Origin: a bacterium
Lineage (GTDB): Bacteria; Patescibacteriota; Minisyncoccia; Phycocordibacterales; Phycocordibacteraceae
Length of the DNA stretch: 64,000 nucleotides
Assembly (NCBI GenBank): GCA_023269085.1
Contig: JAHFML010000003.1
Location: forward strand, 52,863 to 116,862
Direction: 5' to 3'
Part shown: in pieces, positions 54,121 through 62,938 of the stretch
Position numbering within the stretch: position 1 is the stretch's first letter
Layout of the letters: the number at the start of each line of letters is the position of its first letter
The notes under the pieces: generated by a model
Told to the model about the DNA's origin: nothing
Seen by the model: only the letters and a program-made list of their open reading frames with translations
Databases searched by the model: none
Made by a program: the position numbers and the translations under genes

Positions 54121-54714
54121 ATGAGCGCACAACAGAAGCAAATCACGAAACTAGTGGCCGCTCTGGTCGAGTTTTCTGACCAGTTCGGCCAGATGTCGAC
54201 CGAGGATTGCCAATGGGCAATCCAAAACACGAAAGCGGCAATCGGCCTCTTCGTAGAGGCGGTGAGGAATCGCCCGATAGCAGCTCTGGTCGGGTTGCCA
54301 GAAGGCACGGTCATCCGTCGCGTGAAGGTCGACCGCTCGCATTCTCCGCAGAAAATGGTGAACGCGACCGGCCGTAGGCAGTACATCGACAAGGACATCC
54401 TCGCGACGATGCCTTTGGGCGAAGGCGACGAGGTGGATGTGTACTTCGTACCGACCAAGCGCTTCGTTTTGGCAAGTGAGGTCTCGGCGTTTCTCGCGCA
54501 GTATGGTCTCGTTCCCGACCCGCGCGCGCAAACGGCGGTGAACGAAGCCGATCCGACCTTCGCCGACGACCATCCGAACGGAACGCAATGGAGCGATTTT
54601 TGCTACCTGACGTTCTACCGCTGGTATGACGAGCGGGACGTGTACTGCAACCGCGACGACCGCGTCTGGCGCGGCTATTGGTTCCTCTCGGGTGTCCCGA
54701 CTCCCCGCAAGTAA
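54121..54714 (+). CDS. DGR-2 target protein with C-terminal variable region
   Basis: SD AAGGAGA 5 nt upstream; VR occupies the last ~36 codons (…CYLTFYRWYDERDVYCNRDDRVWRGYWFLSGVPTPRK). Confidence 0.75.
   Translation: MSAQQKQITKLVAALVEFSDQFGQMSTEDCQWAIQNTKAAIGLFVEAVRNRPIAALVGLPEGTVIRRVKVDRSHSPQKMVNATGRRQYIDKDILATMPLGEGDEVDVYFVPTKRFVLASEVSAFLAQYGLVPDPRAQTAVNEADPTFADDHPNGTQWSDFCYLTFYRWYDERDVYCNRDDRVWRGYWFLSGVPTPRK
54601..54707 (+). repeat. DGR-2 variable repeat (VR)
   Basis: 107 nt aligning to 55025..55131; ~14 mismatches, all at TR adenines. Confidence 0.9.
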
Positions 54715-54763
54715 GTCCTCGGGTCTTTGAGTATAAGAACTCTTTAGACCCTTAACCCTTTGT

Positions 54764-54792
54764 GCGCCGCTTTCCCAAGCGGCGCATTTTGT
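54764..54792 (+). terminator. Rho-independent terminator after DGR-2 target
   Basis: gcgccgc tttcccaa gcggcgc + attttgt. Confidence 0.7.
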
Positions 54793-55024
54793 ATATGATG
54801 CAAATGGTAGTAGGCGAATACGGAAGCGATTACGGTTTCTTCCTGCCGAATCCAGTATCCGTACGTTGAGAACGTGTGCGATTACGGTTGCATATGGAGG
54901 ATGTACGCAGAAACTTCAAAAAATGAAGATACTTGGTGTGAAGTGCTGGCGCATTACCGATGCCGAATACGATTCAACCTTGAGAATACTCGATGGGTGG
55001 TGGCACAGATGGCGCTCCATACAT

Positions 55025-55131
55025 TGCTACCTGACGTTCAACCGCTGGAATGACGAGCGGAACGTGAACTGCAACCGCAACGACAACGACTGGAACGACA
55101 ATTGGTTCCTCTCGGGTGTCCCGACTCCCCG
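55025..55131 (+). repeat. DGR-2 template repeat (TR)
   Basis: AAC-rich in VR frame (…NRWNDERNVNCNRNDNDWNDNWF…); intergenic. Confidence 0.9.
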
Positions 55132-55140
55132 TAACTCTCT

Positions 55141-55509
55141 TCATTTCTCGCCCGAACCTCTATGTTCGGGCGAGTTTTGTTTAACGAGCTGCCCATTCCA
55201 TCCACCAAGCATTCTCCCGACCTCCTCAAGTGGCATCGAGAGAGCGATGTATTTCTTCGTATCGAGCGATTTGGTCTCCCAGAGGATGAGTAAGAATATT
55301 TTTAGCGTATCGAGTTTACGAATAGCGAGACGCACCCACGGCTGTTTCTCAGTTTTTGAGAGAAAGCTTGCACTTGCGACTGCTTCAATCAACGCAACGA
55401 ATTCCGCGTCAACTGTTCCACCGAGCGTGTGCCGATGGGTCTTCGGTATGGTTTGATAAAATCCATACCATATAATATACGCATGCTTAATACGCTCGAG
55501 CACCGGCAA
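55141..55509 (-). CDS. avd: Avd homologue, DGR-2
   Basis: 122 aa; ...LSMPLEEVGRMLGGWNGQLVKQ resembles the Avd C-terminus; TTG start. Confidence 0.7.
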   Translation of the reverse strand: MPVLERIKHAYIIWYGFYQTIPKTHRHTLGGTVDAEFVALIEAVASASFLSKTEKQPWVRLAIRKLDTLKIFLLILWETKSLDTKKYIALSMPLEEVGRMLGGWNGQLVKQNSPEHRGSGEK

Positions 55510-55516
55510 GAGCCTC

Positions 55517-55526
55517 GGGGGGGGGG
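55517..55526 (+). repeat. Homopolymeric G10 tract between divergent avd-2 and RT-2
   Basis: agcctcGGGGGGGGGGagcttcgaag; 8 nt upstream of avd-2 start. Confidence 0.95.
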
Positions 55527-55606
55527 AGCTTCGAAGAATCGAATTCGTTCATACCTATGAGCATATCATCTCGATCGAGAACCTTCTCGACGCGTGGCGA
55601 GAATTC

Positions 55607-56542
55607 GTGAGAGGGAAGAAGAAGCGTGCGGATGTGCAAGAGTTCGAGAGAGACTTGATGCAAAATGTCATATCGTTGCATCGTTATCTCGTGTCTGGCG
55701 CGTACCAGCACGGCCAGTACGAGCGCTTCAAAATCAACGACCCCAAGCCTCGCGACATCCACAAAGCGAGCGTGCGCGATCGGCTCGTGCACCATGCCAT
55801 CTATCGCATTCTATATCCATTCTTCGACCGCACTTTCATCAGCGACTCCTATTCCTGCCGCAATGGGAAGGGAACGCACAGAGCCATGAATCGCTTTAGA
55901 GCCTTTGCGCGCAAAGTATCGAAGAATGACACGCGCACTGCTTGGGTCTTGAAGTGCGACATACGCAAGTTCTTCGCCTCGATTGATCAGTCAACGCTCC
56001 TCGTCATCTTGAAGAGACGCATAACAGACGAACGCACGCTGACACTTCTGCAACGAGTTATCGAGAGCTTCCGCACACCCTGTGCAACACCTGGTGTTGC
56101 ACAAAAAGGCCTCCCGCTTGGCAACCTTACCTCACAACTCCTCGTGAACATCTACATGAACGAGTTCGATCAATTCGTGAAGCACGCGCTCAAAGCAAGA
56201 TACTATCTCCGCTATGCCGATGACTTCGTATTCATCTCTCACGACCGCAGAGAGCTCGAGGCGCTTCTGCCTCGGGTCGATGCCTTTTTGCGCGACCGGC
56301 TCAAGCTCGAACTGCATCCAGACAAAGTCTCAATCGCCACGCTCGCTTCGGGTATCGACTTCTTGGGCTGGGTGCATTTCTCTGACCATCGCGTTGTGCG
56401 AGGCGCGACGAAGCGGCGGATGTTGCGGAGGATTGAAGAGATGGGTGGCAAGCCAGAGGTGGTGAGCTCGTATCTGGGGATGCTCTCGCACGGGAACGCG
56501 TACCGGCTTGTTGCTCATATTTCAGAACAGAAGGAAAAGTGA
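55607..56542 (+). CDS. DGR-type reverse transcriptase, DGR-2
   Basis: ~85% identical to RT-1; YADD and LGNLTSQ motifs; no ATG equivalent to RT-1 Met1 (ATG->ATC), so the true N-terminus is unclear. Confidence 0.85.
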   Translation: MRGKKKRADVQEFERDLMQNVISLHRYLVSGAYQHGQYERFKINDPKPRDIHKASVRDRLVHHAIYRILYPFFDRTFISDSYSCRNGKGTHRAMNRFRAFARKVSKNDTRTAWVLKCDIRKFFASIDQSTLLVILKRRITDERTLTLLQRVIESFRTPCATPGVAQKGLPLGNLTSQLLVNIYMNEFDQFVKHALKARYYLRYADDFVFISHDRRELEALLPRVDAFLRDRLKLELHPDKVSIATLASGIDFLGWVHFSDHRVVRGATKRRMLRRIEEMGGKPEVVSSYLGMLSHGNAYRLVAHISEQKEK

Positions 56543-58353: not shown

Positions 58354-58932
58354 ATGCAGATCCCTGATCAGCTGAACGTCGAGTTCTTTTTCCGTCTCCT
58401 TTACGAATGCCTTCACGGCGCGTGTATGGGTGGCGCCAATGGCGCAATTTTTTCTGCATGGCTCGCGCAGCTCTGGCTCTGGATCGTCCTCATCGGGTAT
58501 CTGCTCGCGATTGTCGGGCTCATCATGATCGTCTATACGACCATGCGTATCTTCGAGCTTCGTAAACGCGAAGAGGAGCACTATGGCACGCTCATTATCT
58601 CGCCGGACGCGGGTGGTGCGAATCCGCGTTGGCTCCACATCGAGACGCTCGCCAAGAGCGCGAACACGAGCGATCTGCGCACCGCTATTATCGAGGCCGA
58701 CATCATGCTCGACGATATGCTCACCACGCAGGGCTACACAGGCGACGGCGTCGCCGAGAAGTTGAAGAATGTCGAGCGTTCTGACTTCGCGACAAGGGAT
58801 GACGCGTGGACGGCGCATAAGGTACGCAACCAGATAGCGCACGAGGGCTCGGCCTTCGACCTCTCTGAGGTACTCGCCCGCCGCACCCTCGCTCACTACG
58901 AAGCTGTCTTCCGCGAATTTGGGATGCTTTGA
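58354..58932 (+). CDS. Hypothetical membrane protein
   Basis: One N-terminal TM then a ~120-aa soluble domain; no recognisable family. Confidence 0.45.
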   Translation: MQIPDQLNVEFFFRLLYECLHGACMGGANGAIFSAWLAQLWLWIVLIGYLLAIVGLIMIVYTTMRIFELRKREEEHYGTLIISPDAGGANPRWLHIETLAKSANTSDLRTAIIEADIMLDDMLTTQGYTGDGVAEKLKNVERSDFATRDDAWTAHKVRNQIAHEGSAFDLSEVLARRTLAHYEAVFREFGML

Positions 58933-59007
58933 GTTGCAAAGCGATTGAGAAGCGGTATAGTGTACCTATCGCAGAGACGCAGGGTCTCTTGCGGTTATGA
59001 GAATATA

Positions 59008-59297
59008 GCGGGGTAGAGGAGAGGTACCTCGGGAGGCTTGAGTTATTCGGGCGTGCGCGCGAGCAATTGCGCGTAAGATCATCTGTCAAATTCGGCGAAC
59101 CCCTCTCGCGAAAACGAAAGGCAACACCGAGCCAAGCTTTGCGAATAATCGCAAGGAAGGTGTAGAGACTAGACGGCAGACATCCTGAGCGTAGTCGAAG
59201 GATGAAGGCATAGTCCAGACCACAAACGAAAGGCAATGAAAATTGTAGTGGTAAGCATAACCTCCAGACCCTGGTTCGATTCCAGGCCCCGCAACAA
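59008..59297 (+). ncRNA. ssrA: Candidate tmRNA-like RNA (tRNA-like T-arm plus acceptor-like 3' end); identity uncertain
   Basis: 3' end ...CCTGG-TTCGATT-CCAGG-CCCCGCA-A mimics T-arm plus acceptor strand; complementary GCGGGG ~285 nt upstream; 410-nt ORF-free interval; followed by a strong terminator; tag ORF not confidently identified. Confidence 0.4.
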
Positions 59298-59306
59298 ACA
59301 AAACAG

Positions 59307-59337
59307 AAAGCCGCCGCAAGGCGGCTTTCTGTTTGCT
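59307..59337. terminator. Bidirectional rho-independent terminator
   Basis: gaaagccgcc gcaa ggcggctttc + tgtttgc. Confidence 0.75.
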
Positions 59338-59344
59338 TCAGAAT

Positions 59345-60616
59345 TCAAAAGAAGGGTGAAGGAGTCGAGAGATCATCGGGCAAGATGGGTGAACGAAATG
59401 CGAGGGAAGGCGCGAGCGCGGTAAGGCGCTTTTCGCAATCATCGGGCTCTTGTCCCGGGATGGGCATCATCTGACGCGGGTCGCCACAGTGTATAAGAGC
59501 GAATTCGGCGAGTCGGGCGATTTCAGTCTTGAATGCGTTCGAGTCAGCATAGCCGCTTGCGGCCTGTAGTTTGGGCTCGAGAGTGGTGAATGGACGCTTT
59601 GGGTCGCCGGTCGCGGCGATGAGACGCGCGACCGCGAGGATGTGCGCCGCTCGCTCCTTCGGGTTGTATCCGAAGATTTCGTTTATATCGGTGAGCACGA
59701 GCCAGTCGAGGATATGATGCGCGGCGTCTTTGAGGCCTTCAGCTATGCGTAAACGTCTGGCAAGGACACTTATTTCCGCGTGGGTGTCGAGAAGAGTGTC
59801 AAGAACTTCTATGGGTTCGATGAGTGTGAGAGAGCCGGAGGCTTTGCCGGAGTGAGCGTTCTCTTCAAGCGATGCGGCTATCTGATTGACGCATTGGCGT
59901 ACCATCTCTTGAAACAGTCGCGAATTCTGATGGCCGTTCTTCATCACGCTCACGAGATGGTTTTCGCCCATCGTGAGCGCGCGCACCACGGGCTGCATGT
60001 CCGCGTAGGTGACCTTCTTGTTGGGGCGAGCTTTGGGCATCTCGACGAGAAGGTAGGTGAGCGCATCACTCGGATCGCGCGTCGGGTCGGTGAATATCGC
60101 GGTGATCGCCTTCAAGTCCTTCTTCGTGCCACCTATGGTGCGCAAAAAATAGAGAAGATTTTCCTCGGCTACTTCGGAGAGAAACTGTAGTCTTTGGTCG
60201 ATAGCCTTCTGTATCCGTTCTTCGTTTTCCGGACTGTTTTCTTCTTCGAGAAGAGCATCGTAATCTATTGGCGGCGCACCGGCGGCAACCTCCTCGCGCA
60301 TCTTCTCGACAGGTGACATGCCGAGATCGTCATGAGGGAAGTGGTTCCATACGCCCGTCATGATCTCGAAGGCATCTATGAAGGTATCCTCGTTTCCAGA
60401 ATGTCGAGCGATGAAGTCAGCGAAAGCAGATTGGAAGTCTTTGAATGGATAGGAGCGTGGTGAGACCATGCCGAGCTTTGTTGCGGCGACGGCCGCTTCG
60501 AATCCGAGCGTGTGCGGGAGTTGAGCGTTCGTAACGAGCGCTTCATAATCACGCTGTATCTCAGCGCGCAACTCTTCTATCGGGCGTTCGAGGTCGGGCT
60601 TGGTGTACGATTTCAT
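59345..60616 (-). CDS. Hypothetical protein (423 aa) co-transcribed with Fic
   Basis: 4-nt overlap with upstream Fic gene; no recognisable domain. Confidence 0.55.
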   Translation of the reverse strand: MKSYTKPDLERPIEELRAEIQRDYEALVTNAQLPHTLGFEAAVAATKLGMVSPRSYPFKDFQSAFADFIARHSGNEDTFIDAFEIMTGVWNHFPHDDLGMSPVEKMREEVAAGAPPIDYDALLEEENSPENEERIQKAIDQRLQFLSEVAEENLLYFLRTIGGTKKDLKAITAIFTDPTRDPSDALTYLLVEMPKARPNKKVTYADMQPVVRALTMGENHLVSVMKNGHQNSRLFQEMVRQCVNQIAASLEENAHSGKASGSLTLIEPIEVLDTLLDTHAEISVLARRLRIAEGLKDAAHHILDWLVLTDINEIFGYNPKERAAHILAVARLIAATGDPKRPFTTLEPKLQAASGYADSNAFKTEIARLAEFALIHCGDPRQMMPIPGQEPDDCEKRLTALAPSLAFRSPILPDDLSTPSPFF

Positions 60617-61680
60617 GGTCGTGTCTTCTTATACCGCGTCGCACGGCCTTGGCCGAGACGCATGATGAGCAAGTGGCTTACGAGACGAAGAAGCGTTTTT
60701 TTGATGGTCGGTACGGCGACAGATCCGTGAAGGCGATTGTGTATCTCGCGGACGGATAGCTCGCTCCCGTCCGCGAAGAGCTCGTAGACGACGATCTGCT
60801 TAGGCGAGAGGAGCATCTCGGGGTGTTTCTCGCCGAGGAGCTTCTCAGCACGCGTCGACTGCGCGAGGAGCGCATCAAGGAAGAACTCGACCCACGGGGT
60901 TACGTCCTCGTCATCGGTCTTGTGACGCTTCTGCGTCTGCCGCAGAGCGAGATAGTAGTCGGTCGTGCGTTCCTCGATAATCTCGTCGAGCGACACGTAG
61001 GGAATGTACGCGTATCCGGCACGCAGGAGGAGCAGGTTTGTGAGCGCGCGCGACAGGCGGCCGTTGCCATCGTGGAATGGGTGGATAGCGAGGAACTCAA
61101 AAATAAAGTTCGCGATCACGAGCAGAGGATGCGTATCAACTTGCGCATCGCGTTCGTTGAACCACGCGACCGCGTCTCCCATTTCCTTTTTCACGAGATA
61201 CGGAGGGGTAGGGCGAAAGAGCACGATCTCTTCACTATCACCGCCACGCATAACGACGACATTGTCGGTCGTCTTGTACGCGCCCTTATGAAGGGCGTCT
61301 TTCTGTGCGAAGTGCAAGAGAATCTCATGGAATTGCAAGGTACGATTCTCGGAGAGTGGCAGATCGGCGAAATGGTCAAATATCCTGCCGAGCAGGTCAG
61401 CATAGCCAGCGACCTCTTCTTCGTCGCGGCCGACCGGCGGTTTCGACTTCAATCCGCGCAGAAGCCGTGCGACTTCGTCATCGCTCAAGTTCGAACCTTC
61501 GATACGCGTCGAGGATCCGGTCGAGGTGATGATGACGGACGTACGCAGACGATCCAAGATTTTCTGGCTCATTTCGGCCGTGCCGCGCCAACGCCCCTTG
61601 AACTCGTCGATGGCCGCGATGCGAGTTACTATATCGTTGGTCAGCTTTATCCTCTTGTTGAATCGATCGTTCATGATCAT
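60613..61680 (-). CDS. Fic-family protein (Fic_N-Fic-wHTH architecture)
   Basis: Canonical active-site motif HPFHDGNGRLSRAL; N-terminal IDEFKGRW Fic_N-like segment; C-terminal wHTH-like region. Confidence 0.85.
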   Translation of the reverse strand: MIMNDRFNKRIKLTNDIVTRIAAIDEFKGRWRGTAEMSQKILDRLRTSVIITSTGSSTRIEGSNLSDDEVARLLRGLKSKPPVGRDEEEVAGYADLLGRIFDHFADLPLSENRTLQFHEILLHFAQKDALHKGAYKTTDNVVVMRGGDSEEIVLFRPTPPYLVKKEMGDAVAWFNERDAQVDTHPLLVIANFIFEFLAIHPFHDGNGRLSRALTNLLLLRAGYAYIPYVSLDEIIEERTTDYYLALRQTQKRHKTDDEDVTPWVEFFLDALLAQSTRAEKLLGEKHPEMLLSPKQIVVYELFADGSELSVREIHNRLHGSVAVPTIKKTLLRLVSHLLIMRLGQGRATRYKKTRP

Positions 61681-61791
61681 ATATAAGCTATATATCCGAT
61701 TATATACGATAGTATCCGATTAGGCAATAGAGCGAGGGAGTGGCGGGGCGAGACTTTTTAGAGACCACGATCTAGGTCGCGGCTTTCGTGT

Positions 61792-62409
61792 GTGTCTAGA
61801 AGAGGTATACTTCCAAATGTGGAAACAGAGATTGAAGCAAAATTTCCCGATATAGATGCCGAAGCGTTACGCGTAACCCTCAAACAAAAAGGGGCGACTC
61901 TCGAACATGCAGAAGTATTAATGCGTCGCAAGAATTACGACTATCCAGATAAGCGGCTTGATAAGATTGGTGGATGGATTCGTGTTCGCGATGAAGGAAA
62001 CAAAGTGACTTTGAGCTACAAACAACTGAATGATCGGACATTGCACGGCACCAAAGAGGTCAGTGTTGTTGTTGATGATTTCGATAAGACTGGTCAATTC
62101 CTTGAAGCAATCGGGATGGAGGCAAAAGCGTACCAAGAAACCAAGCGAGAAAAGTGGAAATATATGGACGTTGAGGTGACTATCGACACGTGGCCATGGG
62201 TGCCGACTTTTGTTGAGCTCGAAGGACCGACTGAAGAAGTGGTGAGAAATGTCGCTGCAAATCTCGGATTCGATTGGAGCAAGGCAATGCACGGAAGCGT
62301 CGAGACTATCTATCAGATGCACTACGACTTCACCGAAGAAGAAATCGATAATTGGGAATCGATCACCTTTATTGCTCCACCCGATTGGTTGTTGGTGAAA
62401 AAGAAGTGA
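61792..62409 (+). CDS. CYTH-domain protein (triphosphate tunnel metalloenzyme)
   Basis: N-terminal ExExK motif (VETEIEAKF); GTG start (alternative GTG at 61819). Confidence 0.65.
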   Translation: MSRRGILPNVETEIEAKFPDIDAEALRVTLKQKGATLEHAEVLMRRKNYDYPDKRLDKIGGWIRVRDEGNKVTLSYKQLNDRTLHGTKEVSVVVDDFDKTGQFLEAIGMEAKAYQETKREKWKYMDVEVTIDTWPWVPTFVELEGPTEEVVRNVAANLGFDWSKAMHGSVETIYQMHYDFTEEEIDNWESITFIAPPDWLLVKKK

Positions 62410-62419
62410 GTATCGACCT

Positions 62420-62938
62420 ATGGAAATCAAATCAACGCTCATCAACCGTTCTGGTCAGACGCTCGCGACTGAGTATCGGGACATCGATTCAGTCGAGGAG
62501 GTTGGTAATAAAAAAGTGCATGGTGTCCATGCCTTTTGCTTCGTGGGCGACAAGCTCGTCGTCGTGTATGCGGCCGCGAAGGGATACTGGACGCCGCCAG
62601 GTGGCGGGGTAGAAGCGGGCGAGACGGTGGAAGAAGCCACTGCTCGTGAGGTACAGGAGGAGACGAACATGCGCGTGCTCAAGCAACGGCCAATAGGCAC
62701 GCTTACCGTTTTCGAACCGGAAGAGACAAAGTTCCAAGTTCGTTCGGTCTGCATCGTCGAACCAATCGGCCCGTTCGTTGCCGACGCTGATCCCGATGAA
62801 GGAGTGACGGAGATCAAACTCATTGACCCTGCCGATATAAAGAAGTATTTCGACTGGGGCGAAATTGGCGATCATATGTTGCGCCGCGCGCTCGAGATCA
62901 AGGGGCAGATGGAGGCCGAGGCGGGACCTATGCTATGA
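62420..62938 (+). CDS. Nudix hydrolase
   Basis: Nudix box GGGVEAGETVEEATAREVQEETNM. Confidence 0.85.
   Translation: MEIKSTLINRSGQTLATEYRDIDSVEEVGNKKVHGVHAFCFVGDKLVVVYAAAKGYWTPPGGGVEAGETVEEATAREVQEETNMRVLKQRPIGTLTVFEPEETKFQVRSVCIVEPIGPFVADADPDEGVTEIKLIDPADIKKYFDWGEIGDHMLRRALEIKGQMEAEAGPML

Follow-up and report, generated by a model that had tools for sequence, protein, structure and literature searches.

An initiator tRNA gene split by a group I intron, convergent with a Fic operon whose second gene varies, in a Kaiserbacteria-like bacterium

A 64,000-nucleotide stretch of DNA (hereafter the window) from a Kaiserbacteria-like lineage of Patescibacteria contains, between two called genes, a gap of about 412 nucleotides (58933-59344). 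An earlier note on this DNA, which counted 410 nucleotides free of open reading frames (ORFs), saw in it a gene resembling that of transfer-messenger RNA (tmRNA, encoded by ssrA) and suggested an integration hotspot. The gap is real; the identity is another. With high confidence, we read 59007-59294 on the plus strand as the gene for the initiator tRNA, tRNA-fMet(CAU), split by a group I intron of 217 nucleotides, and the two genes convergent with it as an operon that encodes a self-inhibited Fic protein and, behind it, a swappable second protein.

The landmarks listed in the earlier note are present. The T-arm CCTGG TTCGATT CCAGG lies at 59270-59286 and is followed by CCCCGC and an A, up to 59293; the complementary GCGGGG, placed roughly 285 nucleotides upstream, is found at 59008-59013, about 280 nucleotides to the 5' side; and a strong terminator, a hairpin of 15 base pairs, follows at 59301-59334. 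What kind of RNA do they belong to? With default settings ARAGORN called neither a tRNA nor a tmRNA anywhere in the window, and its tmRNA mode (-m) found no tmRNA there. When introns were allowed (-i), it reported a split tRNA at 59007-59295 with an insert of 217 nucleotides. In Rfam, the group I catalytic intron (RF00028) is the only family above threshold in the 64 kb; it matches 59030-59235 over the full model (positions 1-253) with 56.2 bits, compared with a gathering score of 50 (E = 1.4e-11). A permissive Rfam scan of 58900-59400 returned nothing else credible. The best tmRNA match, to beta_tmRNA, spans the 17 nucleotides of the T-arm and reaches 6.7 bits, where the gathering score is 84. 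The landmarks go far beyond chance: a 21-nucleotide probe taken from the 3' end of the tRNA occurs once in the window and not at all in 100 shuffles, and the E-value of the RF00028 match is that given above. The elements of the tRNA gene are as follows:

58934-58961, plus strand: candidate sigma-70-like promoter, TTGCAA-16-TATAGT, 46 nucleotides 5' of the tRNA (consensus scan, 9 of 12 matches; function putative)
59007-59038, plus strand: 5' exon of tRNA-fMet, positions 1-33 (ARAGORN -i; contiguous with the 3' exon in the 24 relatives that have no intron)
59039-59255, plus strand: group I intron, 217 nucleotides, with an apparently Azoarcus-like (IC3-type) core and no ORF (RF00028; helices checked base by base)
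59255, plus strand: terminal (omega) G of the intron, preceding CATAACC
59256-59294, plus strand: 3' exon of tRNA-fMet, positions 34-73 (fold of the spliced product; 87-95% identity to the 3' halves of intron-less relatives)
59301-59334, both strands: candidate bidirectional intrinsic terminator hairpin, 15 pairs of which 8 are G-C, with T-runs on both strands

To place the splice junction, we enumerated 7 x 13 combinations of boundaries. Only one pair, with U59038 ending the 5' exon and G59255 ending the intron, obeys the U...G rule and leaves an anticodon loop of seven nucleotides. These boundaries yield a tRNA(CAU) with its intron between positions 33 and 34. The spliced product of 71 nucleotides folds into a cloverleaf in RNAfold (-31.6 kcal/mol) and is called tRNA-Met(cat) by ARAGORN. 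The label tRNA-Ser(tga), also given by ARAGORN, was rejected as the product of an assumed 37/38 intron. The splice rule gives CAU as the anticodon, and so do the intron-less alleles described below.

The exons together hold every part of a tRNA. The 5' exon supplies A1, the acceptor strand G2-G7, the D-arm (GAGG/CCTC with A11:U24), the anticodon-stem strand GGAGG, C32 and U33; its positions 2-32 are identical across more than 40 related loci, and position 1 is A, C or T. The 3' exon supplies the anticodon CAU, the stem strand CCTCC, a variable loop of four nucleotides, the T-arm, the acceptor strand CCCCGC, A72 and the discriminator A73. CCA is not encoded. Three features point to an initiator: A1 faces A72 unpaired, and in relatives position 1 is A, C or T with A72 invariably opposite; the D-stem GAGG/CCTC carries A11:U24; and the anticodon stem has G30-C40 and G31-C39.

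The same gene can be followed through relatives, whose loci we number with the prefix L. Scanning species-representative genomes with the P6-P7 core string of the window's intron retrieved at least 120 loci in many phyla, including Kaiserbacteria, Nomurabacteria, Saccharibacteria, Parcubacteria, Omnitrophota and Planctomycetia; for many of them ARAGORN's call is a tRNA(cat) in which the insert sits at position 33-36. The boundaries, GGCT closing the 5' exon and a final intron G before CATAACC, are common to 13 distant homologues and recur in 7 close ones. A second scan, of metagenomes, used as query the 192-amino-acid protein encoded upstream (p192) and gave 60 loci with the conserved order gatC-gatA-p192-tRNA. 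By sequence, the initiator tRNA gene has three allelic states within this one clade:

24 loci: exons directly abutted, a plain tRNA by Rfam (for example L132 with 58.9 bits, L174 and L135)
at least 10 loci: the window's intron, TGA..TT(C/G)GGGC ... GTAG(T/C)GGTAAG, with the same ends
at least 8 loci: a different group I intron of 244-250 nucleotides inserted after CAT (36/37), RF00028 with 60-69 bits

In the 24 intron-less syntenic relatives the gene equals exon 1 plus exon 2, that is, excision of the intron restores the host gene. The 36/37 intron is 55% identical to the 33/34 intron of the window; its carriers are L131, L141, L143, L145 (1650-1897), L153, L154, L155 and L181, where GGCTCAT is followed by GTGAAAA. 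A separate observation concerns nine relatives (L130, L146, L148, L150, L151, L161, L163, L165 and L167), which have one or two extra exact copies of 17-18 nucleotides of the 5' exon 60-150 nucleotides upstream of the tRNA. They may represent either a second tRNA or a remnant; the window has none upstream of its tRNA.

The helices of a group I intron can be laid out base by base in the insert, all on the plus strand:

P1, 59036-59042/59046-59052: 7 of 7 pairs, with the wobble U59038-G59050 at the 5' splice site
P2, 59055-59062/59067-59074: 8 of 8 pairs, GCAA loop
P3, 59082-59087/59175-59180: 6 of 6 pairs
P4, 59091-59097/59125-59131: 6 of 7 pairs
P5, about 59101-59121
P6, 59137-59143/59150-59156: 7 of 7 pairs
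P7, 59167-59171/59211-59215: 5 of 5 pairs
P8, 59181-59185/59200-59204: 5 of 5 pairs
P9, 59219-59223/59248-59252: 5 of 5 pairs
P9a, 59233-59237/59242-59246: 5 of 5 pairs, GAAA loop

Comparison with homologues supports this fold, a conserved P3-P9 core that includes P7 as the G-binding helix and the pseudoknot of P3 with P7. When 14 distant homologues were aligned with the window, compensatory changes appeared at 29 of the 54 predicted pairs; among 8 close homologues they appeared at 13 of 59, with P6 and P8 rebuilt from different sequences. P2, P3, P5, P6, P8, P9 and P9a are backed in this way. P4 and P7 are invariant and give no covariation signal. The window's intron departs from the distant set at only 4 of 92 invariant columns, and two of these four are a compensatory exchange of A-U for G-C. 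Because the core has changed so little and the changes in stems are compensatory, selection seems to be maintaining the structure of the intron. The intron of L133, closely related to that of the window, carries about 30 inserted nucleotides in its P1 loop, where they form one more hairpin (GTGAGGTATCCCGCTGGAAGCGGGACTCAT); this loop therefore tolerates expansion.

On the established group I mechanism, the intron would splice itself. Transcription would run from about 58961, the candidate promoter being suitably placed for the tRNA, to the terminator at 59301-59334, and the intron would fold into its P1-P9 core. An external guanosine would then attack after U59038, in the U-G wobble of P1, and the freed 5' exon would in turn attack after the terminal G59255. 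Joining of ...GGCU to CAUAACC... would give the tRNA of 71 nucleotides, with CCA added afterwards.

Several points weigh against this reading of the RNA. Bacterial initiator tRNAs classically need three consecutive G-C pairs in the anticodon stem (29-31:39-41). The stem GGAGG/CCTCC has G30-C40 and G31-C39, but A29-U41 in place of the third. Other patescibacterial homologues likewise have only two, whereas homologues of the same intron class outside the Candidate Phyla Radiation have GGG/CCC. The case for an initiator is therefore built on homology, A11:U24 and the mismatch at 1:72. P4 carries one C-A mismatch, which several close relatives have too. Finally, the search of the 64-kb window found no other tRNA, and a second initiator tRNA may exist elsewhere in the genome. 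Could the split gene then be a decaying pseudogene with a dead intron? The P4 mismatch speaks for it, as does a peripheral hairpin between P9 and P9a that is shorter than in relatives. We consider decay very improbable: exon positions 2-33 are the same as in intron-less relatives, 88 of the 92 invariant core columns are kept with compensatory changes in the stems, and both the promoter-like site and the terminator are intact. The earlier proposal, a tmRNA-like gene whose 3' end serves as an attachment site for an island, has next to no chance of being right. Acceptor and T-arm halves some 280 nucleotides apart and a terminator behind them do reproduce the gross layout of a tmRNA gene, and this tRNA-like module with the spacing of its halves is the whole of the resemblance. 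A tmRNA lacks the complete D-arm and anticodon arm, both strands of the anticodon stem included, that are present here; the RNA of the window in turn lacks a tag ORF, a series of pseudoknots, a match to any tmRNA model (the ARAGORN search is empty and the Rfam score is a small fraction of its threshold) and the G3-U70 pair, 3:70 being C-G. What separates the two halves is a full-length group I intron lying in the anticodon loop. That no clean tag ORF could be read is explained, since none exists. The intron-less alleles, in which the same gene is a plain tRNA of 71 nucleotides, already refute the tmRNA reading.

We turn to the operon that faces the split initiator tRNA gene. The terminator hairpin separates the two convergent units, and the operon is made up as follows:

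59345-60616, minus strand: p423, second gene of the operon, 423 amino acids (ORF call)
60613-61680, minus strand: Fic gene, 355 amino acids, class II (SoFic-like), with a C-terminal winged helix-turn-helix (wHTH) (Pfam, PADLOC and PDB matches)
61699-61727, minus strand: candidate sigma-70-like promoter, TTGCCT-17-TATAAT, 19 nucleotides 5' of the Fic start codon (10 of 12 matches; function putative)

The earlier note had correctly described a Fic protein with an intact active site, in an operon with a 423-amino-acid protein and overlapping it by 4 nucleotides: the Fic stop and the p423 start share ATGA. The Fic protein matches the Pfam Fic family (6.4e-16), with a weak wHTH match, and SoFic of PADLOC (1e-41). 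Its best solved relative is PDB 8uqu (E = 4e-40), aligned over residues 21-352 and hence through the C-terminal wHTH. The active-site motif HPFHDGNGRLSR, in which HPFHDGNGR is intact, occupies residues 200-211 (61048-61083) and follows the pattern HxFx(D/E)GNGRxxR. At residues 57-62 (61495-61512) lies STRIEG, which aligns with SNRLEG of 8uqu and conforms to (S/T)xxxE(G/N) in the same chain as the Fic domain; this inhibitory motif and the class II classification reportedly go back to Engel et al. in 2012. The protein is thus a class II, SoFic-like Fic, predicted to be a self-inhibited AMP-transferase, and with STRIEG in its own chain it needs no separate antitoxin. At E<=1e-40 its subfamily, a very large one, counts at least 7,983 proteins, and many of these are patescibacterial. 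On the SoFic equivalog model of NCBIfam it scores 52 bits against a cutoff of 550, which sets it apart as a distinct subfamily.

The protein encoded by p423 has no match in Pfam, NCBIfam or PADLOC. Homologues number 17 among 5.8 billion proteins, and a profile search gave 33 cluster representatives among 1.84 billion. Its AlphaFold model is all-alpha and confident (predicted local distance difference test, pLDDT, 85). Foldseek with this model returned nothing significant; TFIIB and cyclin T1 are among the top matches, a weak hint that the modelled fold may resemble the helical folds of cyclins and TFIIB. Neighbours of p423 homologues are often genes for restriction-modification, Shedu, Pif1 and RadC.

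What stands behind Fic differs from relative to relative. The nearest orthologues of Fic (L192 and L194, 83-84% identity) occupy the same locus, convergent on an intron-less tRNA-fMet beside p192-gatA-gatC-ligA. The genes downstream of Fic are these:

Window (Fic taken as reference): p423, overlapping by 4 nucleotides
L192/L193 (Fic 83% identical): a 158-amino-acid protein
L194 (Fic 84%): a 127-amino-acid protein, overlapping by 4 nucleotides, then a 715-amino-acid AEP-TOTE/superfamily 2 (SF2) helicase
L152 (Fic 47%): a 711-amino-acid AEP-TOTE helicase (PF22548 1.4e-77; PADLOC PrimPol 2.5e-69)
L153 (Fic 48%): a truncated form of the L152 helicase; a tyrosine integrase lies between it and the tRNA
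L150 (Fic 46%): nothing, Fic abutting the tRNA

None of the downstream proteins of relatives shares similarity with p423. Since Fic is constant and its neighbours differ, Fic is the constant element of the locus and the downstream gene the variable one. Comparison of these loci marks the second gene as a swappable cassette, and Fic itself looks like a long-term, vertically inherited resident. The PrimPol-like (AEP-TOTE) fusion with an SF2 helicase, of 711-715 amino acids, accompanies Fic in L152 (5126-8341, minus strand), L194 (1385-4961, plus strand) and L153 (2620-4263, minus strand). Pfam names PF22548 a 'TOTE conflict system' domain, which is a family name only, and a literature search found no paper on 'TOTE conflict system'.

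Two other accounts of this locus deserve weighing. One follows the earlier note in seeing an island, integrated at the tRNA 3' end and composed of Fic and p423, perhaps with the genes for CYTH and NUDIX proteins and other neighbours. What lies between the 3' end of the tRNA and Fic is different in each relative that was examined; upstream of the tRNA, synteny is kept in about 50 relatives, and directly downstream it is broken; L132 has, 0.4 kb after the tRNA, the homologue of a gene found 5.2 kb downstream in the window; the tyrosine integrase of L153 adjoins the tRNA; and the company kept by p423 homologues also fits an island. The stretch between tRNA and Fic is hypervariable, and support for a hotspot or island is indirect; the marks of an island do not appear in the window. 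Neither the called genes of the window nor the next 9 kb include an integrase. Searching for attachment sites with exact words of at least 11 nucleotides and fuzzy 20-30-mers of the tRNA 3' end gave one 11-nucleotide match, taken as chance; the direct repeat of the RNA 3' end that should bound an island is absent, with no repeat of 12 nucleotides or more within 11 kb downstream. G+C shows no shift in composition (0.54-0.58, as in the flanks), Fic sits at the same locus in the nearest relatives, and p423 was not found in viral contigs. A bounded island therefore seems unlikely to us, and we conclude that the locus is a variable junction rather than a demonstrable island.

The other account makes Fic and p423 a dedicated pair, toxin and antitoxin or enzyme and target, in which p423 would neutralize or activate Fic or be AMPylated by it. 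The ATGA overlap implies translational coupling. In L189, of a divergent lineage, Fic-wHTH again stands directly upstream of p423, as in the window (p423 65% and Fic 37% identical), and in L005 a different Fic, of 213 amino acids, lies one gene upstream of p423 within a cluster of restriction-modification, Shedu and HEPN genes; both loci also tell against a second gene that is freely exchanged. Altogether a Fic is near p423 in 3 of 8 informative contexts, above what is expected of an unrelated gene (the p423 contexts of L190 and L191 end at the contig edge). On the other side, the inhibitory motif in the Fic chain itself leaves an antitoxin unneeded, p423 stands without any Fic in L003/L004, L006, L007 and L188, and orthologous Fic genes have unrelated downstream proteins or none. 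Known Fic/Doc antitoxins are small and encoded upstream (VbhA/VbhT, Phd/Doc). Here the partner is downstream and has 423 amino acids, unlike a small upstream antitoxin acting in trans. Of the earlier suggestion of a Fic toxin with a target or immunity partner, the operon survives, whereas immunity is weakened by STRIEG in the chain, by the disparity of family sizes (more than 7,900 members against about 17) and by the other or missing downstream genes. Some functional coupling of Fic and p423 may exist; that the two form a dedicated pair is improbable. Two p423 paralogues that had been suspected in L007 were rejected, tblastn giving a single match.

We therefore return to the split initiator tRNA and the Fic operon with its swappable second gene. 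A further idea, possible but less likely than not to be correct, is that the space between tRNA and Fic is a site of cassette exchange. Fic would serve as the fixed partner, a sensor or regulator, in a two-gene conflict (defence-like) module that is polymorphic through swapping of its second gene, and p423 would be a new effector or a Fic substrate. The adjacent initiator tRNA gene is itself polymorphic in the same clade, being intron-less or carrying the 33/34 or the 36/37 intron.

Other elements lie on either side of the locus. Divergent from Fic, on the plus strand at 61792-62938, are genes for a CYTH-domain protein (205 amino acids) and a NUDIX hydrolase (172 amino acids); G+C dips to 0.47-0.50 here, and CYTH is also found near Fic in L192. 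Further upstream in the window, at 54121-56542 on the plus strand, lies a complete diversity-generating retroelement (DGR). The 3' end of its target ORF (54121-54714, 197 amino acids) carries the variable repeat (54600-54710), to which the template repeat (55024-55134) is 88% identical, and all 12 mismatches inside the repeat body fall on adenines of the template copy. The reverse transcriptase, at 55607-56542, is also carried by L167 and L172. In L192 and L194 ligA is directly beside gatC, so the DGR is an insertion in the window's lineage.

Why do these loci matter? Default tRNA and tmRNA finders are silent here, and the initiator tRNA of this genome would consequently be scored as missing, a known annotation artefact in Patescibacteria (PMC13011429). 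The 60 syntenic loci form a natural series, one orthologous essential tRNA gene in three states, that can be used to date the gain and loss of introns and to ask whether these introns have spread with no homing endonuclease to help. With its exchangeable downstream gene, the Fic locus is a small system in which the partners of SoFic-type proteins in organisms with ultra-small genomes can be tested. An intron-split tRNA of this kind has been published, and Fic belongs to a common self-inhibited class; the only novelty left open lies in the orphan p423 family and in the gene behind Fic, which can be exchanged.

How does the locus compare with known systems? The Fic protein shares with SoFic and other class II Fic proteins (PADLOC SoFic; PDB 3eqx, 3zcn and 8uqu) the N-terminal inhibitory helix, the active-site motif, the C-terminal wHTH and a length of about 350 amino acids; it differs in heading an operon with a variable second gene. 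With the Fic and AEP-TOTE helicase pairs of its relatives it shares an orthologous Fic, the same locus and tight coupling (a 4-nucleotide overlap or a 3-nucleotide gap), and differs in having p423, with no shared similarity, in place of the helicase.

The intron looks IC3-like, judging from its core pattern and from the sequence of an Azoarcus-type intron. The core of the Azoarcus pre-tRNA-Ile(CAU) IC3 intron is nearly identical to that of the window's intron in GUCAAAUUCGGCGAA, CCGAGCCAAGC and GGUGUAGAGACUAGACGGCA. The small size (about 205-217 nucleotides) and a P9 region with a GAAA tetraloop are common to both, and the core pattern scan retrieved many betaproteobacterial tRNA(CAU) introns. 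The sequences of P2, P5, P6 and P8 differ, and so does the site: the Azoarcus type stands at 36/37 of tRNA-Ile2, after CAU, whereas the window's intron interrupts the initiator tRNA at 33/34. Class IA has additional helices, P7.1/P7.2, which the window's intron lacks. Its Azoarcus/IC3-like appearance, a subgroup judged by likeness, contrasts with a survey of 95 complete Patescibacteria genomes in which none of the tRNA introns was of IC class (PMC13011429).

That survey of complete genomes (Nakagawa et al., mSystems 2026; PMC13011429) provides the closest comparison. It describes 33/34 of tRNA-fMet as a classical intron site, reports 33/34 introns of Met(CAU) in two complete Patescibacteria genomes and also in cyanobacteria, for which it cites earlier work, and notes that standard tools miss or mislabel such intron-split tRNA genes. 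In its supplementary sequences, the 5' exon of one Patescibacteria case finishes with GGCT, and the intron there begins caaaatgggct. The window's intron agrees with these published 33/34 introns of tRNA-fMet/Met in the type of host gene, the insertion site, the U...G boundaries, the 5' exon end GGCT, the guide GGGC, the lack of a homing-endonuclease ORF and the failure of default finders to see it. It differs in a P1 extended by 3 base pairs and in its host: the two published patescibacterial cases are Microgenomatia, whereas the copy in the window comes from a Kaiserbacteria-like lineage represented only by draft or metagenome data.

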